Part shown: positions 33,571 through 50,195 of the stretch, one piece after another
Numbering within the stretch: position 1 is the stretch's first letter
Layout: each line of letters opens with the position of its first letter
DNA from: an uncultured Rhodospirillaceae bacterium
GTDB lineage: Bacteria > Pseudomonadota > Alphaproteobacteria > MPNO01 > UBA2964
Direction of reading: 5' to 3'
DNA length: 64,000 nt
NCBI GenBank assembly: GCA_964499275.1
Contig: CAZCKO010000001.1
Coordinates: 14,739 to 78,738, forward strand
The notes under the pieces: model-generated
What the model was told of the DNA's origin: nothing
Databases searched by the model: none
Seen by the model: the letters and a program-made list of their open reading frames with translations, nothing else
Translations under genes and position numbers: made by a program

Positions 33571-34524
33571 TTACCCACCTTGTATTTTCTTATGGAGCAA
33601 TGTTTCTCCCATACCTTCGCCAAGGCTCCATTCCGCAAAATTTTCTGGGGTTGATTCCCATTCACGTGGTTCCCAATTATCATCGACTACATCAGAATCA
33701 AAATCATATTCTGCCGCTCCACCACATGGGTTTTTAAAGTACCAGAAATAACAGGAAGATATGGGATGACGACCTGGCCCAATCATGGTTTCCCAGCCTT
33801 TACGGGTCATATTATTTCCACCCCCGAAAAGCTCATGAATTGATCCAAGCTCAAACGCTAGATGATGGAAACCGCGTTGTCCTTTCCCTGGATCAAGCAA
33901 AAAAACGTTGTGATGGTTGTTAGCATCAGCACACCGAAAAAAATAACCGCGCCCTGGATAGGAATCCGTTAATTTAAAACCTAATCCATCAATATAAAAA
34001 TCTTTGTGCTTTTCCAGAGCGTCGGTCATAAAAACTATATGCGAGATCACTAAGGGTGACGCACAGCTATAAGCTGGCCCACGCTGATTAAGCCTATTGG
34101 CATTCCCCGGAACATTGATTTCGACTTCGGGCGCATTAGCTTGCGCACATTGTGTTGGTCTAAAAGCAATCCCAAAGCCCAATGGATCAACGCCGTGGAG
34201 TGTCCCGTCTTCGTCTATAATCACTCTTCCCTCAGCGGCCAGAATTGGTTCTAAAGCGTCGATGTCAGTGATTGAGTTTACGCCGAAGGTTACCTCCCGC
34301 ATTGTGGCAGTCTTATTTGGCCCAACGGGCGGTGGTAAATTAGGAGAATTTGGGGGAACTATCTCAATTTCCGCTCCATTTTGAGCAGAAAATACCGCCT
34401 GGTTATCTTTAACGTTTTTTAAAACGAGACCAAAATCTTTCCAGAACTTACATGCACCGTCCAGATCTTCAACGCCATATGTTACTCTCTCAATACCGGT
34501 ATGGTGCACCCTATACTCTCCCAA
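33571..34524 (-). CDS. Two-domain VOC-family extradiol ring-cleavage dioxygenase (catechol 2,3-dioxygenase-like)
   Basis: 317 aa. Duplicated glyoxalase-fold modules. HHLAFE metal-ligand motif in the C-terminal module. Confidence 0.7.
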   Translation of the reverse strand: MGEYRVHHTGIERVTYGVEDLDGACKFWKDFGLVLKNVKDNQAVFSAQNGAEIEIVPPNSPNLPPPVGPNKTATMREVTFGVNSITDIDALEPILAAEGRVIIDEDGTLHGVDPLGFGIAFRPTQCAQANAPEVEINVPGNANRLNQRGPAYSCASPLVISHIVFMTDALEKHKDFYIDGLGFKLTDSYPGRGYFFRCADANNHHNVFLLDPGKGQRGFHHLAFELGSIHELFGGGNNMTRKGWETMIGPGRHPISSCYFWYFKNPCGGAAEYDFDSDVVDDNWEPREWESTPENFAEWSLGEGMGETLLHKKIQGG

Positions 34525-34588
34525 TCAATTATAGTTTTTATATTTCTTATCTATTTTTTTGGAATGCCTTTAACAATTATTTTGGAAA

Positions 34589-35440
34589 TCACGGATTTGC
34601 AATAGTATCCACACCGGCCAGCTCGTCGCCCGGATTAACAATAAATGCCTCTCCACGAGAGAAAAAATCTCGTATAAGCGCGACAAACCTATCCGGTTGG
34701 TCAACCTCGATATTGTGTCCTGCATCGTATACATAAAGGAGCTTGGCTCTCGGGATCTCCCGCATCAGAAGCTGTCCACTTTCTGGTGGCATCATACCAT
34801 CCTTAGTTCCCTGCATGATAAGTGTCTGGCATTTTATGTTCTCAAGGTTTGAGACTAATGTTTCATCGAGCCCTATCGACTGATGATAATAGTTAGCCCA
34901 TTTACGACTTTCTGAAAGTTGCTTAGATGTTTTCTCACCTTCCGGAATACGCTCTGGATGGGCAAACATACGAGCTTGCATTTCCTCTGGGTTATCTGCC
35001 GGCCTATAGGGAATGTTTTTAGGCCGGAAGCCTGAGGGACATTGTGGAACCAAAAAACCTACCTTGTCTGCATGACGTACCGTAAACCACACTGATAGAA
35101 AACCCCCAAAAGATTGGCCAATAACATCGACTTTCTCGCCAATAACCTCATCCACAAAATCCGCTGCCAAATCAGCAAGGGCCGGCATGGTATCAATTCC
35201 ATCATGGGGCTTTGTGTTTTCAAAACCAGGAGCTACAAACATATAAATTCGGTAATTTTCAGCTAATTCATCTAATGCATAAGTAAACCTGATACCTCCA
35301 GCACTATGAAAATATAATATTGGCGGTCCATTGCCGGCGGCATAATAGGTCACGGGACCAGAAGAAAGATCGGCAATACATTTTTTAAAGACTCCGCCGG
35401 CCGGCCCTTCAATAATCATTTTGCTCCTTCCTTCTCCCAA
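34589..35440 (-). CDS. Alpha/beta hydrolase (meta-cleavage-product C–C hydrolase-like)
   Basis: GQSFGG nucleophile elbow. C-terminal DAGHNIEVDQPD His motif. Confidence 0.7.
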   Translation of the reverse strand: MGEGRSKMIIEGPAGGVFKKCIADLSSGPVTYYAAGNGPPILYFHSAGGIRFTYALDELAENYRIYMFVAPGFENTKPHDGIDTMPALADLAADFVDEVIGEKVDVIGQSFGGFLSVWFTVRHADKVGFLVPQCPSGFRPKNIPYRPADNPEEMQARMFAHPERIPEGEKTSKQLSESRKWANYYHQSIGLDETLVSNLENIKCQTLIMQGTKDGMMPPESGQLLMREIPRAKLLYVYDAGHNIEVDQPDRFVALIRDFFSRGEAFIVNPGDELAGVDTIANP

Positions 35441-35462
35441 GTGGTCCCGTTACCTCTTTCCT

Positions 35463-36509
35463 TTACTTCTTTTTCTTCTTTTTACCACGCAGGACTGAAC
35501 GGAATTTCTTACCCAATCGCGCTTCATTCTTCATCCGCCAATCATAGGGCACGTCGATTACTTTCTTACCCTGTACGTATTTATACATATCACCCGACTT
35601 AGTACTGATAAGAGAATAGCCCCTAACATCATGGATAGTCTTTTGGCCGGGCTGTGATACTACCCAATAGCCCCAAAGTTTAGCTATATTTGGAGATTTA
35701 GAGTCTTTTACAATATAGGCACCCCTAGCAGCTAAGATTACCATATCCATATCAGGATGTTTAACTGGTGCGCCTTTGCGGATTTCGGCCCAGGCATCTG
35801 TACCCAAACCTATGGCATATTCGCCCGCTATAATTCTAGAACGTACGTCAGGGTAACGCGGTAAGGTCTTAATCTTTTGTTTTTTGAGTAGCGCCTGCAA
35901 ATACTGCTCAGCCTTCTTTTCCCCAAATGCATAAGAATAATAGATCCAAGGCGACGGTGAGCGTGGCATCGCCAACTTACCTTTCCATTTAGGTTTTAGT
36001 AAATCACTGTAACTCTTAGGTGCATCAGCCGACTTTACTAATTTGGTATTAATGGTCACCATGGTAAGGTAACTGTCATGAGTTTTGATGCCATACTCCC
36101 CCTGCATCAAGCTTTTAGATAATCCAAATTCCTTGGACCAATTAAATTTCACTATTGCATTATTTTTAATCAAATAACGGGGGCTGGAAGTCCAAAATAG
36201 GTCAAGGCCTGTAGGTACATTATTCTTAAGGGCTCGAACAACCTCAACACGCTTACGGGTATGACGGCCTCCAACCTGATTCAGTTTAATTTTGGTACCA
36301 TAAAATGAGTTGAACCCGTCATTCATCATCTTAACTTGCCGAGGATTCATTGTAGTGCCAAAGACTGTAGCTTCACCTTCCTTCACGGCAGCTGGAACCA
36401 ATTTTTTTACCGAGTTGGGAAGTTCAGCCGCAACTGCAAAGGTTACTGTGCTGGTTAGAAGGGTTAACCCTCCTAAAACGGTAGATATTTTGATATTAAT
36501 ATTCTTCAT
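35463..36509 (-). CDS. ABC transporter substrate-binding protein, Fe3+/thiamine/polyamine (type II PBP) family, with a C-terminal poly-Lys tail
   Basis: Signal peptide. FbpA/PotD-like fold. Ends ...RGKKKKKK. Confidence 0.65.
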   Translation of the reverse strand: MKNINIKISTVLGGLTLLTSTVTFAVAAELPNSVKKLVPAAVKEGEATVFGTTMNPRQVKMMNDGFNSFYGTKIKLNQVGGRHTRKRVEVVRALKNNVPTGLDLFWTSSPRYLIKNNAIVKFNWSKEFGLSKSLMQGEYGIKTHDSYLTMVTINTKLVKSADAPKSYSDLLKPKWKGKLAMPRSPSPWIYYSYAFGEKKAEQYLQALLKKQKIKTLPRYPDVRSRIIAGEYAIGLGTDAWAEIRKGAPVKHPDMDMVILAARGAYIVKDSKSPNIAKLWGYWVVSQPGQKTIHDVRGYSLISTKSGDMYKYVQGKKVIDVPYDWRMKNEARLGKKFRSVLRGKKKKKK

Positions 36510-36570
36510 CTTTTTCCTCCTGTTTCATAAAATTTGCCATTTCCAGACCCGGTCTCTCGCCAGGCTTAAC

Positions 36571-38361
36571 TTATTCTCCTAAACCATGCCTTTGTTTTCG
36601 GGTGGAACCGATTAGGGTGATAGCTGAGGACCCAATATCAGAGAGCCATTGGCGAGTAGAGCGACGTCGCCTAACGTCCACGCCTCTTATCTCCTGCATT
36701 CCGGTAATTCGTCTTGCAAAAAGAGCAAGAAGAACCAAAACAAAAATCATATAAATTGCTACCGCAGCCGCTGCATTTTGTTCTCCATTTGTTTGTAGGT
36801 TAAAAATTAGCGTAGCAACGACCTCTGAATTTCCTGTGTTCATCACCAGCGGTAGCGTAAGATCACGTGCTGCCAACATTCCTACCATTAATGCCGAATA
36901 GAAGATAGCAGGTGCCATGAGGGGCAAAAAAATTCGGCGAAAAGTGTCCAGCTTTGAAACTCCAGATACATAGGCAGCTTCGTCGAGTTCAAACTGAATT
37001 TGTAACGACGTTGCATTCATAGTTCGTGTACAATAGGCCAACATTCGTGTGCCCATGGCTATGGCAACGAGCCAAATGGTTCCGAACAATGGGAGCCAAT
37101 GATAAATAGCGATCCCCATAAACTGAAAAGCGACACCAGTAACAATTGTGGGAACTGCCGGTGCAAGAAAAACAATACTGTCCGCCCAATGTGCGGCTTT
37201 GTGTCGGCTGCGTGTGACCAACCATGTAATACTGGTAGCCAAACTAGATGCGATAATGACCGAACCCGCCATTAAAATTAGAGTGTTTTTAAGTGGTTCG
37301 CCTATCCAGTCAAGGGCGTCATAAAAACTGTTAAGATTGACCGAACTTAGTGCCTGAATTGACGGTGGCTGGAAAAAGGGTACCAACGCGACCCAAATGA
37401 TGGTGATAACTGGAATAATGATACTGGCAAGAAGCCACACCCCTACACAGGCATAAGCCGCCCATTTCCAGCGCCCGAGTGGCTGAGGTGCTGAAGCGCG
37501 AACCTTCCCACCCACTACAGCATACTTTTTAGCCTGCTTTAAAAACCGCGCATAAAATGCGATAGCGCCACTACAAATTGCGAAGAGAACAACACCCGCA
37601 GCACCTGCAAATCCGAGGTTAGGCGGGCCATCGGATTCAGCGATTGCGTCATAAATCCAAAGTACCAAGACATCTCCGGGCATTCCGATAATTGCAACGA
37701 AATCAAACATCTCAACCCCGATTACAAAATAGAAAATCGAAACAGCGACCATACTGGGTCCGAGGAGAGGAAGTACAATACGTCCAACGGTATGCGACTT
37801 CGAAACACCACTTACCCATGCTGCTTCCTCAAGTGAAGCATCAAGATTACGAAAGGCTGGGAGCATCATGAAAACACCCCCGGGCACGAGAACAATACCC
37901 TGTAAAAAACATATCCAGGATAGCTGATAGACATCAAATAGTGCCCCACCGCTAAATTTGGTCATATCGAAAAGCTGATTAACCAAACCTGATGTTGGAT
38001 TGAACAACCAAACATAAGACATTGCTGTAATAAATCCAGGGATAGCGAGTTTGGCAGTAAGCAAAGAAAACAGTCCGGTCCTGTAACGAAAATCGGTGCG
38101 GGCCAACAACCAAGCGAATGGAAAGGAAAAGACAAACATCCAGAATACGGTACCCACGCCTAACACTATAGTTCGACCGGTCACCCCACCTAATGTATCC
38201 TGAGAAAATAATTCGAAGTAATTTGCCAGCGAATATCGATCAATATCGCCTTCTTCACTGAAACTGGTGACAACATTACCAAAAACAGAAATGCACACCA
38301 TGAACAACCCCACCCCAGAGAGTAGGAAGACCCATCCTATACCGTAGGATCTATTCAACAC
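36571..38361 (-). CDS. Fused two-domain ABC transporter permease (FbpB/ThiP-like, about 12 TM)
   Basis: Duplicated permease domains with EAA-like motifs. Start placed at the GTG at 38361 (GGGAGG RBS, 11-nt overlap with the upstream ATPase). The ORF track runs to 38466. Confidence 0.7.
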   Translation of the reverse strand: MLNRSYGIGWVFLLSGVGLFMVCISVFGNVVTSFSEEGDIDRYSLANYFELFSQDTLGGVTGRTIVLGVGTVFWMFVFSFPFAWLLARTDFRYRTGLFSLLTAKLAIPGFITAMSYVWLFNPTSGLVNQLFDMTKFSGGALFDVYQLSWICFLQGIVLVPGGVFMMLPAFRNLDASLEEAAWVSGVSKSHTVGRIVLPLLGPSMVAVSIFYFVIGVEMFDFVAIIGMPGDVLVLWIYDAIAESDGPPNLGFAGAAGVVLFAICSGAIAFYARFLKQAKKYAVVGGKVRASAPQPLGRWKWAAYACVGVWLLASIIIPVITIIWVALVPFFQPPSIQALSSVNLNSFYDALDWIGEPLKNTLILMAGSVIIASSLATSITWLVTRSRHKAAHWADSIVFLAPAVPTIVTGVAFQFMGIAIYHWLPLFGTIWLVAIAMGTRMLAYCTRTMNATSLQIQFELDEAAYVSGVSKLDTFRRIFLPLMAPAIFYSALMVGMLAARDLTLPLVMNTGNSEVVATLIFNLQTNGEQNAAAAVAIYMIFVLVLLALFARRITGMQEIRGVDVRRRRSTRQWLSDIGSSAITLIGSTRKQRHGLGE

Positions 38362-39520
38362 GGGATGCACCCTCCCCCGCAAGGCCACCTTCCAAATCCT
38401 CAGACAACAAATTTTGAGCGGGTGTGACAACAACAGTATGATCGGGTGGAAAACATAAACTAACATTATCCCCCTTTTTTACAAAAAACTTATGATGACA
38501 TTTGACACGAATTGATTCTTTACAGGCTTCAACGGTGTGAACAAATCCTTCACCCACATAATCAGAGGCGACAACAATGCCTTTTATGACGTTATTGGAT
38601 TCTTTGCTCTCTACACTATTGATCTGGATATCCTCAGGCCGAACACCGAGGATACATGAATCACCAACTACAAAACCAGCCCCACTCGTTGCATGAGCTT
38701 GTAAATCTCCAAATGGCGTACCAACCTCTACATGGCGACCGTTACTCCCTTTAAACTTTGCCGAAAATATATTCATGTCACCTAAAAACCTAGCGACAAA
38801 CTCATTTTCTGGATGATGGTAGATAGTTTGCGGATCGTCTAATTGAACTATTTTTCCTTGCTCCATTACCGCAATTCGATCTCCTGTCTCAAGTGCCTCC
38901 GCCTGATTATGAGTGACGTGGACTGTTGTAAGGCGCAATTCGTGCATCAGATCACGCATTTGTGCACGCAACCTAATTTGTAATTTGAGGTCCAGGTTGC
39001 TAAGTGGTTCGTCCATCAACAGGACCCTAGGCCGCAGCGCAAGAGCGCGGGCAAGCGCCACGCGCTGCTGTTGACCTCCACTCAACGTTATAACCGGTCG
39101 GCGGGCCATCTCACCCATACCAAGCATTTCGAGGACTTCACCTACGCGCACCCGAATTTCATCGTCTGCCATCTTGGTTCGACCGCGACGTAAGGGAAAA
39201 GCTATATTCTCATATACGTCCATGTGAGGCCAAATTGCATAGGACTGGAAAACCATAGCGATGGGTCTACGATCTGGCGGTATGAAAAGTCCTGCTGCGG
39301 AGTCGAAGACTGGTTCTCCATCAATATGAATTGACCCCAACGACGGTCGCTCCAACCCGGCGATTGAACGTAACATGGTTGTTTTCCCGCAACCGGAAGG
39401 CCCAAGTAGCACAAAGAATTCGCCTTCCTCTATTTCTAGATTTATACCACGCAAGGCATGCACAACGCTGTCCCGCAAATCAAACTTTGCTTCCAACTCT
39501 TGTGTTTTCAAAATAGCCAT
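38351..39520 (-). CDS. ABC transporter ATP-binding protein with a C-terminal TOBE domain (FbpC/PotA-like)
   Basis: GPSGCGKTT, LSGGQQQRVALARAL, LLMDEPLSNLD. C-terminal TOBE-like region. Confidence 0.85.
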   Translation of the reverse strand: MAILKTQELEAKFDLRDSVVHALRGINLEIEEGEFFVLLGPSGCGKTTMLRSIAGLERPSLGSIHIDGEPVFDSAAGLFIPPDRRPIAMVFQSYAIWPHMDVYENIAFPLRRGRTKMADDEIRVRVGEVLEMLGMGEMARRPVITLSGGQQQRVALARALALRPRVLLMDEPLSNLDLKLQIRLRAQMRDLMHELRLTTVHVTHNQAEALETGDRIAVMEQGKIVQLDDPQTIYHHPENEFVARFLGDMNIFSAKFKGSNGRHVEVGTPFGDLQAHATSGAGFVVGDSCILGVRPEDIQINSVESKESNNVIKGIVVASDYVGEGFVHTVEACKESIRVKCHHKFFVKKGDNVSLCFPPDHTVVVTPAQNLLSEDLEGGLAGEGASRVE

Positions 39521-39541
39521 ACGACGTATCTCTCTAATCTG

Positions 39542-40555
39542 CTATAGTGGTCGCGCGAAGACCCCTTGTTTTTGCAGCCGTTCAATTGTTGCTTTAGTAG
39601 TTTCTTTGGTTGCTGGCCCGGTATTGGTCTCCATGAAGGTCTGTTTAGCGAACTCTTGACCAAATAACTCTGATTTTATTTGCGCCGGGTAGTTCATAAA
39701 AACCTCGGTGCGTCGTTTTCGTAACCTCTCCACATCGATCGTGGAGACCAGAACTGATTCGCCTGCCCCATCGATTTCCGAATCCACATTACCGAGATAA
39801 TTGATAACTTTCGAACAACCACGCGATGCCTGTGCAGCAATATACTTACTCTTAATAGCCCCAGCGTTTGCCGAGGCAAGATAGACAAAATTTTCATAGG
39901 CCCGCGACCGACGAGCCTGATCCAAAGTTTGAACCATCGGCCCGTTCCATTCAGCGGTAGGATGCAAAAGAATTTCCGCGCCATGAAAGGTAAGGACGCG
40001 GGAGAGCTCAAAAAAATTCATGTCGTGTTCGACCATCAAGGCTAATCGCCCATATGGCGTATCAAGGACAGGGAATAATGAGCCCTCCCCATAGCGTTCA
40101 ATATAATCGCTATATACATCAGCAGGAGAGGCGTTAGGAATAAGTCCCTCAACATTATGTTCATGAATTTTTCGATATCGAAGTTCTACATCCCCAGAAG
40201 GGCCTATAATAAAACCGGTTGTGAACCAAATTTCTGGCCATTCAGGGTCCTGTTCAAATGCAGCAGTTGCGATATAAACCTGCTGTTCTTTGGCAAAATC
40301 TCCAATTCGTGACGTTTCAGGTCCCGGAATTTGTATGCAGATCTCCTTCCAATCAGCCTCTCGACGGGTGTGGTTAAACCCTTGCAGCCACGCTTCCGGA
40401 AATACTATGACTTTTGCTTCATCACGAAGGATGGCGGTTTCGGCAATATTTAAACCTCGTTCGATATTCCGGCCAATAACAGAATCTCGATCTACTGGAT
40501 CGTCGATAACCTCGATGGCTGCCTGAATGCACGCTAATTGATATTGTTTTGTCAT
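39542..40555 (-). CDS. Carbon–nitrogen hydrolase (AmiE/aliphatic-amidase-like) paralog lacking the catalytic cysteine (Cys→Glu)
   Basis: Conserved Glu (VFPEAW) and Lys (RYRKIH) of the E-K-C triad are present. The position aligned to ALINCYD of the neighbouring paralog reads ALMVEHD. Confidence 0.7.
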   Translation of the reverse strand: MTKQYQLACIQAAIEVIDDPVDRDSVIGRNIERGLNIAETAILRDEAKVIVFPEAWLQGFNHTRREADWKEICIQIPGPETSRIGDFAKEQQVYIATAAFEQDPEWPEIWFTTGFIIGPSGDVELRYRKIHEHNVEGLIPNASPADVYSDYIERYGEGSLFPVLDTPYGRLALMVEHDMNFFELSRVLTFHGAEILLHPTAEWNGPMVQTLDQARRSRAYENFVYLASANAGAIKSKYIAAQASRGCSKVINYLGNVDSEIDGAGESVLVSTIDVERLRKRRTEVFMNYPAQIKSELFGQEFAKQTFMETNTGPATKETTKATIERLQKQGVFARPL

Positions 40556-40557
40556 GA

Positions 40558-41715
40558 TTAAGTCAGCGCCGTATTCTGTTTTTCTGGCTCCCGATCGTTC
40601 CCTAATTCCTCTGGCGGAGCATAAACACCATCACGCAAATAACGCGCAATAACTGCTTCGGTATTCTGGCGAGCTTCAGATTTATGGGCTATGGGATTTT
40701 CTAACCAATGATTAATGCCTGTGGCCTGATGTTTTTTATATTCTTTCGCATAAATCTCGGTCCGACTTTGGGCCAATACATTACCACGTATCTCAGTCCG
40801 TTTCTCACGAAGTGCTTTAAGATCGACAGGACCAATCGCCAAGGCTTCCCCAGGGTTAGGAGATTGACCAACTATTTTACCGTTAAAATCAACAATTTCT
40901 GATCCACCATGCGAACGATGCAGCGGTGCTATTTCACCACTACGACGCTGCTGGAAATTAAGTCCGGGGGAGTCAGCAAATACATCGCCTGAAACTTGTG
41001 CAACATACCCCCCATGATTTGATGAGATCACATACATACAATTTTCAAAAGCACGTGTACGTCTACTCATCTCCCATGAATCACGATGTGGCCCATAGGG
41101 CTCGCCTGTACAATGCAACAGGATTTCTGCTCCATATTGCGCAAATGTCCGCGGCATTTCTGGGAAATTTATGTCATAGCAATTTATCAGTGCGAGCCTA
41201 CCGATCTCTGTATCTACTACCGGAAATACAGCATTCTCACCCCCCTCTTGTTTAACATAAAGATCGTAAAGTCCGGTCGGAGTAGAATAGGTCGCATGTC
41301 CCTGAACATCAGCACCGTTCACCTTACGATAACGAAGTTCCAAGTCGCCGGTGGGGCCGAATAAATAAGCAGAGTTAAACCACCGACCAGGATATGCCGG
41401 ATCATATTCCATCGTCCCACCCGCTACATAAGCCTTATTTTGCTTAGCAAAGTCAGCTAAGGGTTCTAACTCTGGTCCGGGCACCTGGATTGCAATTTCA
41501 CACCATTCCTCAACGGAACGTACATGCTCAACACCGGTTAGGGAAAATTCTGGTAAAACGTAAAGCTTAGCCTGTCCCCACCGGCAACTAACATAATCCA
41601 TCAGCGATAGGTAACGATTAATATTTTCGCGAACTATGGCTTCACGCCACTCTGGCTCCCGCACATGCCGGATGATAGTCTGGACCGCAACAGCTGTATA
41701 TTTTTCGACCATCAA
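40558..41715 (-). CDS. Carbon–nitrogen hydrolase (AmiE/aliphatic-amidase-like), catalytic triad intact
   Basis: LPEFSLTG (Glu), RYRKVN (Lys), LALINCYDINFPE (Cys). A roughly 60-aa C-terminal extension. Confidence 0.75.
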   Translation of the reverse strand: MMVEKYTAVAVQTIIRHVREPEWREAIVRENINRYLSLMDYVSCRWGQAKLYVLPEFSLTGVEHVRSVEEWCEIAIQVPGPELEPLADFAKQNKAYVAGGTMEYDPAYPGRWFNSAYLFGPTGDLELRYRKVNGADVQGHATYSTPTGLYDLYVKQEGGENAVFPVVDTEIGRLALINCYDINFPEMPRTFAQYGAEILLHCTGEPYGPHRDSWEMSRRTRAFENCMYVISSNHGGYVAQVSGDVFADSPGLNFQQRRSGEIAPLHRSHGGSEIVDFNGKIVGQSPNPGEALAIGPVDLKALREKRTEIRGNVLAQSRTEIYAKEYKKHQATGINHWLENPIAHKSEARQNTEAVIARYLRDGVYAPPEELGNDREPEKQNTALT

Positions 41716-41759
41716 TCAAGCCCCCCCTGCTTTCTGGTTAAATCGAATCTTTTTTGTTT

Positions 41760-42917
41760 TTATTCAGCAGCAGCAATACCTTGCTCTTCGCCAAGGTGTC
41801 GTACCGCTGGTATTACTTCATCACGTAATAGTCCTAGTGTTTGGTTTACTTTTTCATCTGGGATATTCCCAATTTTTATACTGAGATTAGTTACGCCGTG
41901 ACCAAACTCTTGATATAGCCGAGTAATCTGTTCAACAGCCATCTCTGGTGTTCCACACATTACTAATCCGCGTTCCATGCGTTCTTCTAATGTCAGCTGT
42001 TTATGTCGTTGTAGCTTTGCTGTCTGGCGCTCTGCATCCTGTTCGTCTTTAAAATACCGAGTTTTTTGTACGACTAATTTTTGTGCGGTCCGAATACCCC
42101 CACCGAGTACATTGAAAAAATAATCATAGCCCCCTTCAAGCGTCTTCATCGCCTCTTTTTTCGTCGGCGCAATTGAACAGTTCATCGCTAAAATTAAATT
42201 TCGGGAAGTTGGTTCCCAACCGTGCTTACGGGAATGCTCCTTGTAGACATCAATAGACCTATGGGCGGATTCGTAATTTTGAATACGCAAGACACCCATA
42301 GTGGCTTTATGTTCTGCGGCGAGTTTGGCAGATGCATCACTACTTGCAGACATTACAATTTCCGGATGAGGCTTTTGCACAGGTTTAGGCCAAATCGAAA
42401 CGGCACGAAATTGATAATGTTCCCCCTCCCAACCAAAGGGCTCGGGCTCGGTCCACGCTTTCTTAATTAATTCGATTGCCTCATTCATTCGCCCATAGGA
42501 TTCGCTCGGGGGCACATTATAAGCAACGTATTCATGAGGTATTCCGCGCATAAAGCCGGCTATTAGCCGGCCTTCCGAGATCATATCCAACATTGCGTAC
42601 TCTTCTGCAACTCTTAGCGGATTGACAATGGGTACAATATTCCCGGATTGGAGGATCATCGCTTTCTCTGTTCGCTCCGCAACACATGCCCCTATTAAAT
42701 TTGGATTTGGCATCAACCCGTAAGGACTCATATGGTGTTCATTATTTCCTATCCAGTCAAAACCACACTCCTCAGCGAAAACCTTATTGTCTATGCCGTT
42801 CCTAAAAATCTTTTGTCCTAATTCGACATCAAATTGTTTGTTGGGAACCGGCCAATCCTGATCCGCAGTTTCGACCCCCGTATACGGCATATGGTGCGTA
42901 TAGGAGAACTTCATCAT
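41760..42917 (-). CDS. LLM-class (bacterial luciferase-like) flavin-dependent monooxygenase
   Basis: 385-aa TIM-barrel LLM family (FDWIGNNEHH...). No flavin reductase in the window. Confidence 0.75.
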   Translation of the reverse strand: MMKFSYTHHMPYTGVETADQDWPVPNKQFDVELGQKIFRNGIDNKVFAEECGFDWIGNNEHHMSPYGLMPNPNLIGACVAERTEKAMILQSGNIVPIVNPLRVAEEYAMLDMISEGRLIAGFMRGIPHEYVAYNVPPSESYGRMNEAIELIKKAWTEPEPFGWEGEHYQFRAVSIWPKPVQKPHPEIVMSASSDASAKLAAEHKATMGVLRIQNYESAHRSIDVYKEHSRKHGWEPTSRNLILAMNCSIAPTKKEAMKTLEGGYDYFFNVLGGGIRTAQKLVVQKTRYFKDEQDAERQTAKLQRHKQLTLEERMERGLVMCGTPEMAVEQITRLYQEFGHGVTNLSIKIGNIPDEKVNQTLGLLRDEVIPAVRHLGEEQGIAAAE

Positions 42918-43057
42918 AGCCTCCGCTTCAGGGTAGCTTTACTACCCGCCTATTAATTCATCATAACAAAATCAACCTGGCGGGACGCACCGCCAAATGC
43001 CCTTTAATTTTGTGCGATTATTTACTTAACGCAATGGCTAATTACGTTATACCTGTT

Positions 43058-43073
43058 ATAGTTATATACTTAT
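43058..43073 (+). promoter_or_regulatory. Quasi-palindromic ATAGTTATATACTTAT (T-N11-A-type) candidate LysR box in the divergent promoter region
   Basis: Imperfect dyad (12/16) within a TTATA-repeat tract 30–45 nt upstream of the LysR ATG. Confidence 0.3.
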
Positions 43074-43102
43074 ATGTTAAAGACAAAGATGATATAAAGA
43101 AA

Positions 43103-44020
43103 ATGTACTCCATAACTTTACGACAGCTAGAAATATTCCGGACCGTCGTTGATGCTGGCTCGTTTAGTGCCGCCGCAGCTGCACTAAAAATTTCACAGCC
43201 CTCAGTTAGTATGCATATTAGGGCACTGGAGACACATTTACGGGAATTGGTTTTTGATCGTCATAAGGGTCAGTCTCCTGTTATTACTGATATCGGTCGC
43301 CGGGTTTATAACCACGCTGAGGAGATCCTTGCACAATCCAAACAAACGCTCTTAGATATTAAATCCCTCAAAACAGTTAAAGACAACGTGTTGTCATTTG
43401 CTGCCCATCGTTTTATTGGGAACCATCTTTTATCCAAACCATTAGCGAATTTTGCAAAACAAAATCCTGGAATCGAAATTATTGCTAATATTGGAGCACT
43501 TGATCAGGCAGTTGAAATGATCCGGAAGCGGGATGTAGACCTTGGTCTTTACCTAGCGAATGGACAAACAAAAGAGGTTATTTCAAAAATTTTAGGGCAT
43601 CAGAAGCTGGCCTTCATTGCTTCCGTCGATCACCCTTTAGCTTCTGGCCAAAACTTGCGTTATCGTGACCTTGCTGAGCACCCCTTCATTGGACCGGTAA
43701 GGGGCACGGATTATGCCAAATTGCTTCAAGGGGTTTTTTATGAGGCGGGTTTTACTAAACACAATACCATAACGCAGTCTCAAAATACTTTGATCCGACG
43801 CGAATTAATTTTATCAGGTGTTGGGTTTTCTTGTATTCTTCAATCTGGCTGGACTGATGATCTCAATATTGGACAATTAGTAGTTCTAGATATGGCTGAA
43901 AATACGCTCTCACTCGAAGTAAGGGTAGGTTCATTATTAGATCGAGAAATTAGCGCCGCATCCCAACAGTTTCTGGAGTATCTAAACCAACTTAGCATCG
44001 AAGGCTATTTCGATGGTTAA
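43103..44020 (+). CDS. LysR-family transcriptional regulator
   Basis: N-terminal HTH (LRQLEIFRTVVDAGSFSAAAAALKISQPSVSMHIRALE) and C-terminal substrate-binding domain. Start at the ATG at 43103. The ORF track starts 93 nt upstream. Confidence 0.85.
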   Translation: MYSITLRQLEIFRTVVDAGSFSAAAAALKISQPSVSMHIRALETHLRELVFDRHKGQSPVITDIGRRVYNHAEEILAQSKQTLLDIKSLKTVKDNVLSFAAHRFIGNHLLSKPLANFAKQNPGIEIIANIGALDQAVEMIRKRDVDLGLYLANGQTKEVISKILGHQKLAFIASVDHPLASGQNLRYRDLAEHPFIGPVRGTDYAKLLQGVFYEAGFTKHNTITQSQNTLIRRELILSGVGFSCILQSGWTDDLNIGQLVVLDMAENTLSLEVRVGSLLDREISAASQQFLEYLNQLSIEGYFDG

Positions 44021-44026
44021 GCATGT

Positions 44027-44806
44027 TCACATACCACAACGTTTTAAGCGAGATGACCAATCTTTTGCATAACTCCAATCTCTTACGTTACGTGCAAAAA
44101 TTTTTTGCTTATTAATTTGTTGAACACAACACAAAGCAAGACACAACATACAAGACAACACTAAAGGACCTGCATCGTTGGCAACATCTGCGATAGGCCT
44201 GAGGGTTGGCATGCCAGTGCCTAACAGTACGATTGCATCATGTTCTGGACCACGAAGGTGTGTTAATGCCTCAGACGCATTTTGAGCTCGCAAACTATAA
44301 ATGGGATGAAAATCACTTTGCTCGTTAAAAGCACTGACCACGTGACCAACCTCAAAACCATGGCTGGACCAGTATTCAGCACTTGCCTCCGTCAATTTCG
44401 GGGGATAGCAGGAAACAAATCCGATTTTCCGCGCCCCAATTGCATTGAGTGCTTCCACTACAGCTAGCCCCGTCGTTATAGCGGGAACGCCAGCACGATT
44501 ACTCCAACGTTCAACTAATTCTGCCTCACGGGCACGACCGACAAGGTATGACGCGCCCGTGCAACCGACTGCAATCGCATCAATAGGGGCATTAGCAAAC
44601 TGCCCGAGAGTGCTTTCCAACCCTTCATAATAATCAATTAATCGGGCTTCTATAGTATCTTCCGAACTAGTTAACCGGGCTGTTATAGTGCTGATGCCCC
44701 GGGGCATCAAAATTTGCATCTCTGGCTCGACTGTTGTGTTGGCTTGTGGCACCAGAACTCCGACCAAACCGCGGGGTGCATATTCCAAAGACAAGCAAAC
44801 CTCCAT
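44027..44806 (-). CDS. Arylmalonate decarboxylase / maleate isomerase / Asp-Glu-hydantoin racemase superfamily protein
   Basis: N-terminal GVLVPQANTTVEPE. First catalytic-site motif AVGCTGAS has Cys. Second pseudo-symmetric motif reads LLGTGMP (Gly, not Cys). Confidence 0.6.
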   Translation of the reverse strand: MEVCLSLEYAPRGLVGVLVPQANTTVEPEMQILMPRGISTITARLTSSEDTIEARLIDYYEGLESTLGQFANAPIDAIAVGCTGASYLVGRAREAELVERWSNRAGVPAITTGLAVVEALNAIGARKIGFVSCYPPKLTEASAEYWSSHGFEVGHVVSAFNEQSDFHPIYSLRAQNASEALTHLRGPEHDAIVLLGTGMPTLRPIADVANDAGPLVLSCMLCLALCCVQQINKQKIFARNVRDWSYAKDWSSRLKRCGM

Positions 44807-44884
44807 CTATGAAGTTATAATCAACTATAAAAGAAAATTACTCAGACTAAATAGCGGTGCAAACTAACTATAAATTAACCTAGA

Positions 44885-46096
44885 TTACAGTAGATCCGGA
44901 AACATATTTGTATCCGTCTCATGAGAATTACCGTCTTTGAACACCCTAGCAGGCACCCAAATTTTTGACGGCTTTATCTCTTCACCCTCCGAATCAGACA
45001 TTTTATGCCTGCTGGAATGCGGTTCCAAAATAGTCATATCTGCAACACTGCCTTTGGCCAAAGTACCTATTTCATTCTCTGAGTTTAGAATAACCGCGGG
45101 CGAGTAGGTTAAACACCTAACGGCCTCATTTAATGGAAGCCCTAACTCTATCAGCCTGTTAAATGCACCAGCGAGGCTATAGTCCAATTTTGAAAAATCA
45201 TGATACGCATTGAAGTCCCCATGCAGATCACTGCTAATCGTATGTGGCGGGTACCCCTTTTCTAACATCATACGAGCTATTCTATACGAAAAATTAATTC
45301 CGTATCCGACATCAAATTTGATTCCGCGGTCATATGCGGCGCTTACACAATCGGGAACGGCATTTGCTCCACCAACCACGCCATCTGGCATATTGCTGTA
45401 AACATGCGCTACGACATCACCAGGTCGCAAATATTGTAGCGTTTTTTCAACTACTGACCTGGGCTCAGGACGCTTCGCATCATCCACCGGGAATAATTCC
45501 CCTGTGTGAACATAAAGGGGTATATCACAGCGCTCTCCGGCCTCTATCGCCTGTTGAAGTACAACCGTATCCCAATGGGAAAGGCCACCAGATTCTCCGT
45601 GGGATTTAATCCCGCAAATCATATCAGGATGACGTTCATACGCATTTACGATTTCTTCAATGCGAGTCATTTGTGGCCCATGCAGGGTAGTCCCCTCCAT
45701 GCCGCCCATTAACGCCCCGGCAAGGTTCGCCGAAACGAAACACCTTACATCGGTAATCGCCTCTTTGCGGATATAGGCCTCAAACCCACCCGCTGTCCAG
45801 GGACCAGAGCTTCCTTGATCAACTACTGTTGTTGCTCCGGAATTAATCCCTGCCTTGTCGGCCGAAATACCAAAATTGGTTACCCATTCATAAACATGGA
45901 CATGCAAGTCTATAAATCCTGGGCAAACAACTTCACCAACAAAATCTATTTGTTCCTTGGATTGTAATGTTGAATCCAATTCCGTACTGAAATACTCAAT
46001 CCTGCCGTTTTTTATACCAATTATCGCCGGTCCAAAATAATCAATAGATGGATCACAAACCGTTTGAGCAGTTATCACCGTATCAAAAATTGTCAT
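44885..46096 (-). CDS. Dihydroorotase-like metal-dependent amidohydrolase (COG3964-type)
   Basis: PGFIDLHVHV metal-binding motif. Start at the ATG at 46096, forming an ATGA overlap with the upstream M20 gene. Confidence 0.65.
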   Translation of the reverse strand: MTIFDTVITAQTVCDPSIDYFGPAIIGIKNGRIEYFSTELDSTLQSKEQIDFVGEVVCPGFIDLHVHVYEWVTNFGISADKAGINSGATTVVDQGSSGPWTAGGFEAYIRKEAITDVRCFVSANLAGALMGGMEGTTLHGPQMTRIEEIVNAYERHPDMICGIKSHGESGGLSHWDTVVLQQAIEAGERCDIPLYVHTGELFPVDDAKRPEPRSVVEKTLQYLRPGDVVAHVYSNMPDGVVGGANAVPDCVSAAYDRGIKFDVGYGINFSYRIARMMLEKGYPPHTISSDLHGDFNAYHDFSKLDYSLAGAFNRLIELGLPLNEAVRCLTYSPAVILNSENEIGTLAKGSVADMTILEPHSSRHKMSDSEGEEIKPSKIWVPARVFKDGNSHETDTNMFPDLL

Positions 46097-47340
46097 AACA
46101 CTTCTTGCATGTTGGCCAACTGGACTAACGTGGTGCACAGCACCTTGGTACCTGCCAAAATGTCACTTTGATTGGTATATTCATTGATGTTGTGACTGAC
46201 CCCATCACATGACGGTACAAAGATCATACCCGAAGGACAAAAATAACTCATTTGACGCGCATCATGACCAGCACCTGAGAAAATACGTCGGCAGGGTAGA
46301 TCAAGATGTTTCGCCTCCTCTTCAATTGCCGAGATAACCTTCTCATTAAATTTAATGGTATCCGCCTCCGCAATACACCAAACATCTGATGAGCATTTCG
46401 ATACAGTTTGGGCCACTAAGTCTCTGACTTTTTTTTCACAATCCAATAGAACTTCGGAATCCGGGTGTCGTAAATCTATAGAAAAAACAACTTCGCTAGC
46501 AACAACTGAAGGCACATTTGGTTCTATTGTTAGCATACCGACTGTAAAACGAATGTCTTCAATAGTTGAAAACACTGTGTACATTTTTTCTATTGTTCTT
46601 GACGCCTCTTCAATCGCATCTTTTCTTAGATCGTAGGGTGTCGTCCCGGCATGGGCTTCATCTCCAATAATCTTCACCCGCATACGCCTGACCCCCTGTA
46701 TTCCGGTAACGGCACCAATGGGGATGCATTCTTTTTCTAGAATGGGACCTTGCTCAATATGTGCCTCTATAAAACAGTACACATCTCTTCCGAATGGAAC
46801 ATTTTTGATGCCCGGTAAATGATCTTGAAGTTTCAGGAGTTCATCCCCGACTGATACCCCTGTTTTATCCTTCACAGCCTTTATCTCTGATATTGGTTTG
46901 ACACCAACATATGCCTCGGATCCCATCATGCCAGGAGCAAACCGGGACCCCTCTTCGTTCATCCAGGCCACTATTTCGATACTTCTTCTGTGTTCTGTCC
47001 TTGAATTGATAATTGCCCGGGCCGCTTCTAGGCCTGCAAGGATACCAAAAGCACCATCAAACTTCCCACCGGTCGGCTGAGTATCAAGGTGCGAACCAGT
47101 CATAACTACCGGCAGATCGGGCTCATTCCCCTCAATGCGAAAAAAAAGGTTACCCACATCGTCGGCAGTTATTTTAAGCCCATATGCTTCTGCCCATGAT
47201 ATACAAAGATCACGTGCCGCAAATTCTTCCGAGGTAAGGGCTTGCCGATTAACCCCCCCGCCTTCAATGCCGCCAATTTCAGCTAGCTCCATCAAATTCG
47301 ACCAGAGCCTTTCAGATTCAATATATTCCGCAAGAGCCAT
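46093..47340 (-). CDS. M20-family Zn-hydrolase of the N-carbamoyl-L-amino-acid hydrolase / allantoate amidohydrolase / beta-ureidopropionase group
   Basis: 415 aa. GSHLDTQPTGGKFDGAFGILAGLEA signature of the AmaB/AllC family. Confidence 0.75.
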   Translation of the reverse strand: MALAEYIESERLWSNLMELAEIGGIEGGGVNRQALTSEEFAARDLCISWAEAYGLKITADDVGNLFFRIEGNEPDLPVVMTGSHLDTQPTGGKFDGAFGILAGLEAARAIINSRTEHRRSIEIVAWMNEEGSRFAPGMMGSEAYVGVKPISEIKAVKDKTGVSVGDELLKLQDHLPGIKNVPFGRDVYCFIEAHIEQGPILEKECIPIGAVTGIQGVRRMRVKIIGDEAHAGTTPYDLRKDAIEEASRTIEKMYTVFSTIEDIRFTVGMLTIEPNVPSVVASEVVFSIDLRHPDSEVLLDCEKKVRDLVAQTVSKCSSDVWCIAEADTIKFNEKVISAIEEEAKHLDLPCRRIFSGAGHDARQMSYFCPSGMIFVPSCDGVSHNINEYTNQSDILAGTKVLCTTLVQLANMQEVL

Positions 47341-47349
47341 GTGCCACTC

Positions 47350-48237
47350 TTAAATTTTTTTCAGTCCAGAAAGCAAAGCCGACTTTCCCAAGTAATCTTT
47401 CTTAGCTGACCAGTTACCCGACTCTGCCATAGCCAAAAACTCAGATAACATTAAATTGGTCAAAGTCGGCTCCTCTAAGTTGACGGTGTGCCCAGTGCGT
47501 GGCATCACACATAACCCTGACATTGGTAAGGTCCGTTTGAGATAAATTGACGGCTCAATGCACCACTCGTCTTCATCACCCACAATGATCAGGGCTGGGG
47601 CATTTACCTTAAGAATATCCTCTTCAAGGTCGTAAAGTGAAGGACGCTTTCGTTGTACACCTAGCATAGTCAGTGCAGCGCCTTGTTTCGAGTGACTGGC
47701 CAACCGGCCTTTGAATGCTTCCCATCCCTTGAAGTCTTTGGTTTTAAATTGTTGTCTAAATGCACCATTCGCATAAAGCTCGGCCATTTCCTCTGAACCA
47801 AGCTCAACGTATTTTTCAGCTAACATTTCTGCATCTTTGGCATATGCTTCCTGCTGGTCCTTGGGAGCGCCATAACCACATGAAATCAATGCTATAGATG
47901 AGGTTTTTTCTGGATACAAGATGGCAAAATGAAGGGCGGCAAAGCCTCCCATCGAACAGCCAATAATATGTGCCGATTTTAGTGAATACCCCTCAAGGAC
48001 TGAATTAATATCCTCAGCGGCAATTTTTTGGGAGTACAGTTCGGGATCCTCCGGTACATCTGATGGTGGATATCCGCGCGCATTGAACGTAATGCATTTG
48101 TATCGCCGCGAGAGAGCGGAAACTTGCATAGACCAGCTTTCAAGGTTATCAGCGAATTCATGAACAAATATGATCGCAGCGCCTTCTCCATACGCTTCCG
48201 TATAAAGCTTGGCACCATTAGCTTCAATTAAAGTCAT
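47350..48237 (-). CDS. Alpha/beta hydrolase
   Basis: GCSMGG nucleophile elbow. 295 aa. Confidence 0.65.
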   Translation of the reverse strand: MTLIEANGAKLYTEAYGEGAAIIFVHEFADNLESWSMQVSALSRRYKCITFNARGYPPSDVPEDPELYSQKIAAEDINSVLEGYSLKSAHIIGCSMGGFAALHFAILYPEKTSSIALISCGYGAPKDQQEAYAKDAEMLAEKYVELGSEEMAELYANGAFRQQFKTKDFKGWEAFKGRLASHSKQGAALTMLGVQRKRPSLYDLEEDILKVNAPALIIVGDEDEWCIEPSIYLKRTLPMSGLCVMPRTGHTVNLEEPTLTNLMLSEFLAMAESGNWSAKKDYLGKSALLSGLKKI

Positions 48238-48239
48238 AT

Positions 48240-49028
48240 TTAAATAGCCTTTACTTGTCCGCCATCTATATCGAAAGAAGCGCCGGTTATATAAGTCGCC
48301 CTATTAGAAGCTAAAAACACAACCAATGCTGCAAGCTCATCTGGCTCGCCATAACGCTTCAAAACTGTTTCCGCGGTCAATATAGCGGTTGCTTCTTTAA
48401 CAGAAATTTGATCCTCTTTCGCTTTTTCCTCTGCAAGATAGATCATTCGATCCGTAGCGAATGGGCCAGGGTTTATCACGTTACACAAAATACCATCTGG
48501 GGCACCTTCTTCTGAAAGTGCCTTACTAATATTTTGAAGAGCAGCGTTAGAAAATCCTGCAGTTATGGCATGAGCATGAGGCTGCCGGCCATGCGTTCCC
48601 GCCATAAAAAGGATACGCCCGCCATTACCTACCGACTGCATTACCCCAAATGCCTCACGTGCCAACCTGATTTGGGCGAATACTTTGGTCTCGGCAGCCT
48701 CGCGCCACATATCGTCTGTCATCTCTAGAAATGGTGCGGTAGCCGCACCGGCTGAATTTGCAATCAAGACGTCAAGTCCATGTTTCCTTGAAACCTCTTC
48801 AATCATGGAGATGGATTGTTCGGCTGATGTCACGTCGCATATGCAGCCTTCAACAACCCCGCAAGTTTCCGCATTCAAATTTTTAACTGCAAAATTGACC
48901 TTTTCCTCATTTCGCCCCGACAGCGTTACCGTTGCACCTTCCAACGCAAACATTCTCGCAATGGAATATCCCAAACCGCTACTAGCTGCACTGACGATGA
49001 CCGACTTTCCTTCAAGCCCCAATTCCAT
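48240..49028 (-). CDS. SDR-family NAD(P)-dependent oxidoreductase
   Basis: N-terminal SAASSGLG dinucleotide-binding motif. 262 aa. Confidence 0.75.
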   Translation of the reverse strand: MELGLEGKSVIVSAASSGLGYSIARMFALEGATVTLSGRNEEKVNFAVKNLNAETCGVVEGCICDVTSAEQSISMIEEVSRKHGLDVLIANSAGAATAPFLEMTDDMWREAAETKVFAQIRLAREAFGVMQSVGNGGRILFMAGTHGRQPHAHAITAGFSNAALQNISKALSEEGAPDGILCNVINPGPFATDRMIYLAEEKAKEDQISVKEATAILTAETVLKRYGEPDELAALVVFLASNRATYITGASFDIDGGQVKAI

Positions 49029-49061
49029 TATTAGCCTCGCTATAAGATATTTTAAATTATT

Positions 49062-50195
49062 TCACGAATGATTACCTTTGCTCGCACATTTTTCAAAGAC
49101 TTTCGGAAACTCTGAACAAAATAAACCAGCCCATTCCTCTGGTACTGTGGTCGAAATTTTAAGAAACAAATTTTTCAAAGTGTCACTATGATAGTCAGAG
49201 GTTCTAATAAAAAATCCCCGGTTGAGTAATTCGTCTGCAATAGAATTTGCAGAAACCCCGCTATCTTGGCAATCAACAGCTAAAAAATTCCCATTAGAAG
49301 GATATACAACGGGGCGTAGCCCCTCTAAGGGCTCTAGCATTCTATTAATCGATTCCTGATTTCGCCTTTGTACCAGGTTAACACCCTCCATCCACTCATC
49401 CTTTACCTCGAATGCCGCCACCGCAGCCAACTGCCCGAGAATATTTGAACCGAGGATATTGGGCTGATCTTCCATTAAATGCGTAAATATTTTCTTATCC
49501 GCTACTACAGCGCCAGTGCGCAGACCAGCGATACCAAGCCATTTACTGAAGCTATATGTCGTGATGGTCCTCTCAGGATAAAGATCTCGGACCAAAAAAT
49601 GATTAAAGGCGAAGTCGCGATAAGTGCAATCGTGTACAATTACAGCTCCGAATTTTCTTGCAGCATCTACGATTTCCGTCAACTCATCCAACCCATAGCA
49701 AGAACCAAGTGGATTAAGTGGGTCAATCAAATAAATAATAGCGTTATCACTAATGGAGAGTTGTTCTTCAAGTTCTCGGGCATCAATCTTATAATCCTTA
49801 CCCTCATCATAAATAGGTAACCGGCAGATATCAGCACCTTCATTCTGACTAAATTTCAGCGGCCATACCCAAGTGGGATCACTTGTAATCAGCGTTGTCG
49901 TCTTATTACTCATTCTCTTGCAAACGAGATACAAACCCTCGACTGCACCATCTGTTATAAGCACCTGTGTCTCCCCGGATGCCTCCGGCCCTATTAAATC
50001 GAGTAATATCTGTTCACGGAGTTTCTCTAAACCTTGCGGCGGCGCATAAAGGTTATAACTCTGGTCGTCGATACCTTTTATAAGCGCCTCTTTTACTAAC
50101 GGGTGGGCAGGCAAATGGTTGGTGTTTTGTCCCATCCAAAGCATGTCTTGGCTTCTATGCAGGGCATCAAAAGTTCGTGTGCTTTGAATTGTCAT
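49062..50195 (-). CDS. PLP-dependent aminotransferase, class I/II
   Basis: SFSKWLGIAGLRTG with the Schiff-base Lys. 377 aa. Confidence 0.75.
   Translation of the reverse strand: MTIQSTRTFDALHRSQDMLWMGQNTNHLPAHPLVKEALIKGIDDQSYNLYAPPQGLEKLREQILLDLIGPEASGETQVLITDGAVEGLYLVCKRMSNKTTTLITSDPTWVWPLKFSQNEGADICRLPIYDEGKDYKIDARELEEQLSISDNAIIYLIDPLNPLGSCYGLDELTEIVDAARKFGAVIVHDCTYRDFAFNHFLVRDLYPERTITTYSFSKWLGIAGLRTGAVVADKKIFTHLMEDQPNILGSNILGQLAAVAAFEVKDEWMEGVNLVQRRNQESINRMLEPLEGLRPVVYPSNGNFLAVDCQDSGVSANSIADELLNRGFFIRTSDYHSDTLKNLFLKISTTVPEEWAGLFCSEFPKVFEKCASKGNHS

Follow-up and report, generated by a model that had tools for sequence, protein, structure and literature searches.

A seven-gene cassette encoding a luciferase-like monooxygenase, a serine hydrolase, a CN-hydrolase pair and an ABC importer is conserved in uncultured Rhodospirillaceae and Binatia

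A minus-strand operon divergent from a LysR gene

What kind of compound is handled by an operon in which a flavin-dependent monooxygenase, two amidase-like proteins, an ABC importer, an alpha/beta-fold hydrolase and an extradiol-dioxygenase-like protein are encoded side by side? The question is raised by a locus of an uncultured Rhodospirillaceae bacterium (GenBank assembly GCA_964499275.1, contig CAZCKO010000001.1), of which we analysed a 64 kb stretch, referred to below as the window, and all coordinates are positions in it. Listing of the ORFs, together with Pfam and NCBIfam scans, placed eight co-directional minus-strand genes at 33571–42917, divergent from the gene for a LysR-type regulator, with gaps between the operon genes of 2 to approximately 79 nt depending on the choice of start codon. 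An earlier reading, made from the letters of the sequence and without database searches (the sequence-only reading), had described this operon-like layout, the gene families and the divergent LysR gene, and all of these were borne out by our scans. It had delimited the feature at 39542–44020, where the elements are real but span only the promoter-proximal third of the operon, and it had taken a ring-cleavage enzyme pair at the distal end for a defining part of the system. Judged by synteny, the operon is real and conserved, but this pair is not what holds it together; the conserved unit is one of seven genes, to which the dioxygenase-like and LysR genes are add-ons found in the closest relatives.

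Seven genes are retained in a fixed order

The locus was compared with the 78 best loci for its luciferase-like monooxygenase (LLM) from a one-genome-per-species collection, by tblastn of the window proteins and by pre-computed Pfam gene calls; an all-versus-all clustering of the ORFs of these loci was set aside, as it was confounded by shadow ORFs in the high-GC loci. Homologues of the LLM number in the thousands, and all 78 of the best loci, with LLM identities to the window protein of 52–88%, come from metagenome-assembled genomes (MAGs), the taxa of which include Rhodospirillaceae, Binatia, sponge-associated Defluviicoccus, Stellaceae and Burkholderiales. These data show a fixed gene order of LLM, CN-hydrolase A, CN-hydrolase B, ABC transporter ATPase, permease, solute-binding protein (SBP) and alpha/beta-fold hydrolase (ABH), which is complete in 12 loci (L004–L006, L008–L010, L013–L017 and L029), all from Rhodospirillaceae and Binatia MAGs and with 69–94% identity to the window. 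With seven genes arranged alike in all 12 of these loci, which represent two or more phyla, the arrangement is not a matter of chance. The Binatia copies have a GC content of 63–66% and the alphaproteobacterial copies one of 43–49%, a genomic difference of approximately 20 points, and the Binatia cassettes are flanked by unrelated housekeeping genes. As gene order and high identity persist despite this gap and these surroundings, the cassette has the character of a single unit passed from one phylum to another. The window itself has a GC content of approximately 45%, with no compositional break at the cassette, and exact copies of the locus are present on marine metagenome contigs. The LysR gene and a neighbouring Amdase-like gene are kept only in the closest alphaproteobacterial relatives (LysR in L004 and L005).

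The same comparison bears on whether the locus encodes a pathway at all, or whether an importer, a nitrogen-scavenging amidase and an unrelated oxygenase–hydrolase pair have merely come to lie together. The modules do occur apart, in that the A/B CN-hydrolase pair is found without the LLM, the LLM and hydrolase are found without amidase or importer, and L012 lacks the amidase pair. However, the shared order and high identity across 12 loci of two phyla, the tight gaps between co-directional genes and the Binatia flanks, which imply that the cassette moves as a unit, make such a juxtaposition barely credible.

The dioxygenase-like gene is a lineage-specific addition

The last gene of the operon (33571–34524, minus strand) encodes a two-domain VOC protein of the type I extradiol-dioxygenase-like kind with a Glyoxalase domain match, in which His162, His220/221, Glu272, His204/205 and Tyr259/262 align with the metal-ligand and catalytic residues of BphC and HPCD. 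It is probably an active extradiol-type dioxygenase, and the sequence-only reading, which had named it as a two-domain enzyme of this class, was right as to the domains. Its scores remain far below the equivalog cut-offs, at 63.5 versus 321 bits for HpaD, 56.4 versus 320 bits for catechol 2,3-dioxygenase and 31.8 versus 366 bits for BphC. An orthologue was found only in the window's own population (L001) and in the close relative L005; in L004 and L029 the cassette stops at the hydrolase gene, and the Binatia loci carry an unrelated 206-residue, single-domain VOC protein on the opposite strand, which is 28–30% identical to the C-terminal domain only. As a lineage-specific addition, the VOC protein may extend the pathway in this strain, but it is not what defines the cassette.

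In the model first put forward for the locus, the LLM would hydroxylate an amide-bearing (hetero)aromatic compound to a diol, the VOC protein would carry out extradiol cleavage, the ABH would act as a meta-cleavage product (MCP) hydrolase and the amidases would take the side-chain nitrogen. Here the VOC gene does lie last in the operon, 64–79 nt after the hydrolase gene, with its metal-ligand and catalytic His and Tyr positions retained; MCP hydrolases are among the nearest solved relatives of the hydrolase, and a small VOC protein also adjoins the Binatia cassettes. The pair shares with BphC/BphD and with the CumD system a VOC protein with 2-His-1-Glu-aligned residues and an upstream hydrolase of the same broad subfamily. 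In contrast with those systems, the window pair is not conserved, as the distribution of the VOC genes described above shows, and the hydrolase is paired with the LLM in 47 of the 78 loci without any dioxygenase. In addition, both the MCP-hydrolase and the extradiol equivalog scores are approximately one-tenth of their cut-offs (for the hydrolase, 39.7 versus 462 bits for BphD and 52.5 versus 400 bits for HsaD), and the hydrolase has GQSFGG and GHN where CumD has GNSFGG and GHW, so that the Asn-Ser and His-Trp signatures are absent, both positions being variable across the family. Neither the MCP-type assignment of the hydrolase nor the classical meta-cleavage pair could be upheld, and we consider the model as a whole improbable; this strain may handle a substrate with an aromatic or heteroaromatic ring, although nothing in the conserved core points to one.

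The hydrolase is paired with the LLM monooxygenase

The ABH (34589–35440, minus strand) has a catalytic triad of Ser110-Asp214-His242, and of 74 homologues linked to an LLM at least 95% retain this triad. A homologue is encoded less than 300 nt from the LLM in the 47 loci mentioned above, which come from several phyla, and within 8 kb in 60 of 78, and in many loci the two occur as a pair with neither amidase nor importer; a permease of the same type lies within 8 kb of the LLM in 25 of 78 loci, as do CN-hydrolases (also 25 of 78). On this genomic context, the hydrolase is the partner of the LLM and not of the dioxygenase. The subfamily to which it belongs is a small one, for which 62 representative clusters out of 1.84 billion were matched at E ≤ 1e-30. 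The top solved relatives in a single-sequence search were carboxylesterases, and at the profile level carboxylesterases/phospholipases (PlaF and TtEst), PHB depolymerase and MCP hydrolases were equidistant at 100–120 bits.

The LLM itself is encoded by the first gene of the operon (41760–42917, minus strand). It is a Bac_luciferase TIM-barrel oxygenase with an EHH motif at residues 60–62 and falls in the LuxA/type II Baeyer–Villiger branch, RutA, DszA-like and LadA-like enzymes being more distant. Enzymes of the LLM type are proven Baeyer–Villiger catalysts whose reductases are often encoded elsewhere (PMC12239570 and PMC4631483), and among the type II members, such as the 2,5- and 3,6-diketocamphane monooxygenases, the progesterone LLM of Caenibius tardaugens and the predicted SAR202 FMNOs, a reductase is likewise not necessarily found nearby (PMC12239570). 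For the LLM expansions of dark-ocean SAR202 bacteria, Baeyer–Villiger oxidation followed by hydrolysis has been proposed, and the cassette would share this logic of ketone, ester or lactone and hydrolysis (PMC5395668). It also shares the setting, being found in deep-ocean or sponge-associated uncultured bacteria with several LLM paralogues. In contrast with these systems, the cassette LLM shows no sequence-level membership (31.9 bits to 3,6-diketocamphane monooxygenase, the likeness being otherwise structural), has a dedicated hydrolase beside it, occurs together with a CN-hydrolase pair and an ABC importer, and is a putative Baeyer–Villiger enzyme. We also noted that in many MAGs (L020–L025, L031–L035 and L086) one hydrolase gene is surrounded by LLM paralogues that are in tandem or otherwise multiple, and that a genome may have several separate LLM–hydrolase loci.

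A related set is found in cultured bacteria. Megaplasmids of Neorhizobium petrolearium and N. galegae encode, in this order, an FMN_red protein, an LLM with approximately 50% identity and an ABH with 34% identity over its full length, and beside these a second ABH–LLM pair, an SDR protein, an alcohol dehydrogenase, a succinate-semialdehyde-type aldehyde dehydrogenase and a thiamine pyrophosphate (TPP) enzyme. Because the FMN_red gene lies directly upstream of the LLM homologue, the view that the LLM is a two-component FMNH2-dependent oxygenase gains support. By analogy, the neighbourhood resembles a route from an alicyclic alcohol through a ketone and an ester or lactone to an acid, and the Neorhizobium homologues provide a cultured and genetically tractable entry point to the system. 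Other neighbours on the N. petrolearium plasmid (L094, 5459–10920) and in N. galegae (L095) include a GntR regulator and a xanthine-dehydrogenase-family subunit.

One of the two CN-hydrolases lacks the nucleophilic cysteine

The second and third genes had been described as those of two AmiE-like amidases in tandem. Both do encode CN_hydrolase-family proteins, and CN-hydrolase A (40558–41715, minus strand; 132 bits) appears competent, with an intact Glu56-Lys131-Cys179 triad, motifs that are invariant in its orthologues and a Cys that aligns with the Nit2 nucleophile. However, CN-hydrolase B (39542–40555, minus strand) is not a second amidase of this kind, since alignment to Nit2 places Glu54 and Lys129 at the expected positions, but Glu176 at that of the nucleophilic Cys. 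All B orthologues in which the motif was found have Glu there; relatives in the 42–48% identity tier have Gly, and only a third tier (33–38%) has Cys. A and B are paralogous, with 34% identity along the full length, and the B gene starts 2 nt past the stop codon of A, the two genes overlapping by 4 nt in Binatia. The same tandem of an A-type protein with Cys and a B-type protein without it occurs without an LLM in L088 and L089 (51–53% identity for A and 44–47% for B), and B is always preceded by a Cys-bearing paralogue. Given the replacement of the Cys and this constant association, B is probably a non-catalytic subunit, and the simplest reading is that A and B probably form an obligate hetero-oligomer of one catalytic and one non-catalytic subunit. 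A relative of B in L090 (9001–10755) is 584 residues long, has Ser in place of the nucleophile and an additional region at its N-terminus, and is encoded with no Cys-bearing partner.

Heteromeric nitrilase complexes have been discussed for plants, namely NIT4A/NIT4B, in which, as proposed here, two paralogous nitrilase-superfamily subunits form a hetero-oligomer. The cassette pair differs in being bacterial, in that one paralogue has Glu or Gly in place of the nucleophilic Cys, and in that the genes are translationally coupled. In the literature searched, we found no description of a bacterial nitrilase-superfamily enzyme made up of a catalytic subunit and a pseudo-subunit. The Cys-less paralogue, always beside a competent CN-hydrolase, points to what may be a new architecture for an amidase.

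Where sister cassettes have no CN-hydrolases, the LLM and ABH are accompanied in approximately 11–13 loci by an isochorismatase-family protein, and one of these proteins shares 30% identity with E. coli RutB along the full length; the window cassette has no isochorismatase gene. It is this amidase of the sister cassettes that makes the triad of LLM, ABH and amidase mirror RutA, RutD and RutB, and it brings in the main rival to a Baeyer–Villiger-type reading, namely a Rut-like oxidative C–N cleavage. In the way that RutA acts on uracil, the LLM would then attack a cyclic amide or N-heterocycle at its amide or ureide carbonyl, the CN-hydrolase pair would take the role of RutB on the ring-opened amide or ureido product and the hydrolase that of RutD, so that both readings involve attack of a flavin peroxide on a carbonyl. 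The enzyme classes are the same three as in the Rut pathway (LLM oxygenase, C–N amidase and alpha/beta hydrolase), and the triad recurs. Beta-ureidopropionases and carbamoylases also belong to the CN-hydrolase superfamily, and the operon neighbouring the cassette encodes a hydantoinase/carbamoylase-family amidase, a cyclic amidohydrolase and a protein similar to Asp/Glu/hydantoin racemases. However, the hydrolase matches RutD over 55 residues only (E = 4e-4) and scores 34 versus 238 bits with TIGR03611, the cassette amidase is of the nitrilase superfamily, an ABC importer takes the place of the RutG permease, equivalents of RutC, RutE, RutF and RutG are absent, and the neighbouring ureide-type operon is not kept with the cassette in Binatia. 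Direct comparison with the E. coli proteins led us to reject membership of the Rut pathway itself: the LLM is not a RutA-type pyrimidine monooxygenase, and neither the LLM nor the ABH is an orthologue of RutA or RutD. A cleavage of the Rut type carried out by other enzymes is, in our estimate, unlikely, but still deserves to be taken seriously.

The importer probably takes up an organic anion

The next three genes encode the importer, in the order of an ATPase (38351–39520, minus strand; ABC_tran with a C-terminal TOBE_2 domain), a fused double permease of approximately 576 residues (36571–38301, minus strand, with the start taken from a metagenome gene call; two BPD_transp_1 domains) and a periplasmic SBP with a signal peptide (35463–36509, minus strand; SBP_bac_6 and SBP_bac_11). 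All three components announced by the sequence-only reading are thus present, although it had exchanged the places of the ATPase and the binding protein. The ATPase is similar to PotA, PhnT2 and UgpC, but below every NCBIfam cut-off, the best family for the permease is PhnU2 (90 bits versus a cut-off of 593), and the sole NCBIfam match of the SBP is PhnS2 (39 bits), no iron- or polyamine-binding-protein model being matched.

The possible ligand classes of the SBP were ranked by a profile search against the PDB. The highest score was obtained with P5PA (pyridoxal 5′-phosphate, PLP; 126 bits), followed by AfuA (hexose 6-phosphate; 118 bits), VcA0625 (glucose 6-phosphate; 116 bits) and MctA (metal-citrate; approximately 114 bits), with HitA/FbpA (ferric iron) at 88 bits at most, the 2-aminoethylphosphonate binder at 61 bits and PotD (polyamines) at 47 bits at most. 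An AF2 model of the SBP (pLDDT 91) had MctA as its top Foldseek match (TM 0.75), and the structural neighbours were 12–19% identical. Since these neighbours bind very different ligands at such identities, only a ligand class can be deduced, and the imported compound is probably an organic anion. The earlier assignment to the Fe3+/thiamine/polyamine class stands for the importer, although the SBP is nearest to organic-anion binders rather than to those of iron or polyamines. With the AfuABC, P5PA and MctA importers of the ‘iron-like’ cluster D, the system shares the TOBE ATPase, the fused double permease and an SBP of the same fold; it differs from them in the low identity of its SBP, which belongs to a small family (102 sequences found). 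The SBP ends in a poly-Lys tail, RGKKKKKK (35463–35490 in the window), which is kept in the orthologues of L004 (17440–17460) and L029 (7142–7162).

The position of MctA as closest structural neighbour, followed by iron-binding proteins, could also be taken to mean that a metal chelate is imported, with a citrate-based or aminocarboxylate ligand that contains amide bonds and is dismantled by the LLM, amidase and hydrolase in a manner comparable with the catabolism of EDTA (ethylenediaminetetra-acetate) and NTA (nitrilotriacetate). The LLM enzymes EmoA and NtaA do degrade chelators, and their genes are found near those of ABC importers. On the other hand, binders of PLP and sugar phosphates score at least as high as MctA in the profile search, inspection of the SBP family consensus (without a residue-level alignment to FbpA) revealed no conserved Tyr-Tyr pair, and no iron-regulation or TonB genes are adjacent to the cassette. 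We regard uptake of a metal chelate as very improbable.

A proposed catabolic route

Set against these alternatives, the reading that we favour, and to which we would give about an even chance, is a catabolic cassette in which an organic anion is imported, the LLM oxygenates a carbonyl by means of a flavin peroxide, the serine hydrolase acts on the product and a heteromeric CN-hydrolase carries out deamidation. The gene families, catalytic residues, synteny and taxon distribution described above would fit the following order of steps. The binding-protein-dependent importer would take up a small organic compound, probably an organic anion. The LLM would be the oxygenase of a two-component FMNH2-dependent system with its reductase encoded elsewhere, and its flavin peroxide would attack a carbonyl of the substrate, leading to a Baeyer–Villiger-type insertion of oxygen or to an oxidative cleavage of a related kind. 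From this an ester, a lactone or an acyl product would arise, to be opened by the adjacent serine hydrolase, and the CN-hydrolase, probably as the A/B heteromer, would release carboxamide or carbamoyl nitrogen as ammonia, either before or after the oxidation. A catabolic function that involves a C–N bond, as suggested by the sequence-only reading, is plausible.

Several observations weigh against this reading. The recurring amidase partner and the RutB-like isochorismatase fit a Rut-like C–N cleavage equally well, and at the profile level the hydrolase is as near to the C–C-cleaving MCP hydrolases as to the esterases. The structural model of the LLM is of moderate confidence (pLDDT 74), with the lowest-confidence segments in loops, and F420-type and FMN-type NCBIfam models score alike with it, at approximately 90 bits, so that a choice of cofactor finds no support there; no flavin reductase gene was found in the cassette or in the 64 kb window. 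The heteromer is proposed from sequence and gene order. In addition, L012 has lost the CN-hydrolase pair and kept the remaining cassette genes, which suggests that the amidase step may be dispensable or peripheral.

None of the proteins of the eight-gene operon, nor the LysR protein, reached an NCBIfam equivalog cut-off, and the literature turned up no characterized pathway that matches the cassette. Together with the origin of the LLM relatives of 52–90% identity in the genome collection, which are all from MAGs, this agrees with the earlier statement that no known pathway could be recognized. The ring-opening pathways of trigonelline, pyridine and tetramethylpyrazine can serve as analogies only, and PMC6099782 offers no detail at the level of enzyme families. 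The homarine (hom) operon was considered as an identity for the locus and rejected, as PMC13236597 mentions no luciferase-like enzyme, hydrolase or amidase.

With more reserve than for the favoured reading, and as a possibility that we place well short of an even chance, the cassette may represent an undescribed route for an abundant marine or sponge-derived metabolite bearing carboxyl and amide groups, in which a Baeyer–Villiger-like LLM with its own hydrolase and an amidase heteromer with a dead subunit are packaged as one mobile inter-phylum unit. No single step proposed for the cassette is mechanistically shocking: flavin-oxygenase/hydrolase catabolic operons are of a known kind, and the part that is probably new is the heteromeric amidase architecture. 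The distribution is almost confined to uncultured marine and symbiotic bacteria. LLM-class oxygenases are strikingly expanded in deep-ocean and symbiont genomes, and a role for them in the breakdown of recalcitrant alicyclic dissolved organic matter has been put forward, though not yet with biochemical proof (PMC5395668). As the cassette packages an LLM with a hydrolase, an amidase and a specific binding protein, the last of which could be expressed as bait for the ligand, it makes the dissolved-organic-matter hypothesis testable and gives experiments unusually direct access to what LLM enzymes do in the turnover of carbon and nitrogen in the deep ocean.

The divergent control region

The LysR-type protein has HTH_1 and LysR_substrate domains. 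The longest ORF for it occupies 43010–44020 on the plus strand and the metagenome gene call starts at 43034; from the translation of the ORF and the position of the HTH_1 match, the true start is likely to be the ATG at 43103 ('MYSITLRQLEIF'), which leaves a divergent control region of 42918–43102 between the LLM and LysR genes. Alignment with L004 and L005 revealed a dyad, AACGCAA-N7-TTACGTT, at 43028–43048, which is conserved in L004, as is a GGAGG Shine–Dalgarno sequence ahead of the ATG of the LLM gene. The LysR protein may bind and control transcription at this region. The 5′ leader of the LLM gene also contains a GC-rich terminator-like hairpin with a T-rich tract (42975–42998, minus strand), which is not conserved in L004 or L005. 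A riboswitch or other known RNA in this leader was rejected, as no Rfam family matched it.

Other features of the window

Convergent with the LysR gene lies a second catabolic operon (44027–53842, minus strand), the theme of which is ureide or cyclic-amide metabolism. Its genes encode an Amdase/Asp-Glu-racemase-like protein, a PRK09237-like amidohydrolase, a hydantoinase/carbamoylase-family M20 amidase (above cut-off), an alpha/beta hydrolase, an SDR protein, a PRK06225 aminotransferase (above cut-off) and an NMT1-type ABC transporter. The two catabolic operons together occupy approximately 20 kb between the ccmABCEFGHI genes (26627–33525) and a tRNA-Ala gene (54217–54292), and neither an integrase gene nor a GC break was seen around this region. 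Beyond it, a further catabolic patch at 56108–63550 contains genes for three Amidohydro_2 proteins, an EamA transporter, a fumarylacetoacetate-hydrolase-family protein and an M20 peptidase.

Two riboswitches were found elsewhere in the window. A TPP riboswitch (20887–20978, minus strand), which scores 55.3 bits and thus just above the Rfam gathering score of 54.3 bits, lies upstream of a LIV/HAAT-type ABC operon (16143–20817, minus strand; Peripla_BP_6, two BPD_transp_2 and two ABC_tran), an unusual cargo for a THI element. A strong cobalamin riboswitch (1197–1405, plus strand; 110 bits) precedes genes for a TonB-dependent receptor and TonB (1597–4582, plus strand). In addition, a VanA-like Rieske oxygenase (73–1119, plus strand) and a sulfatase (5143–6612, minus strand) are encoded near the start of the window, as would fit a marine heterotroph with broad catabolic abilities.

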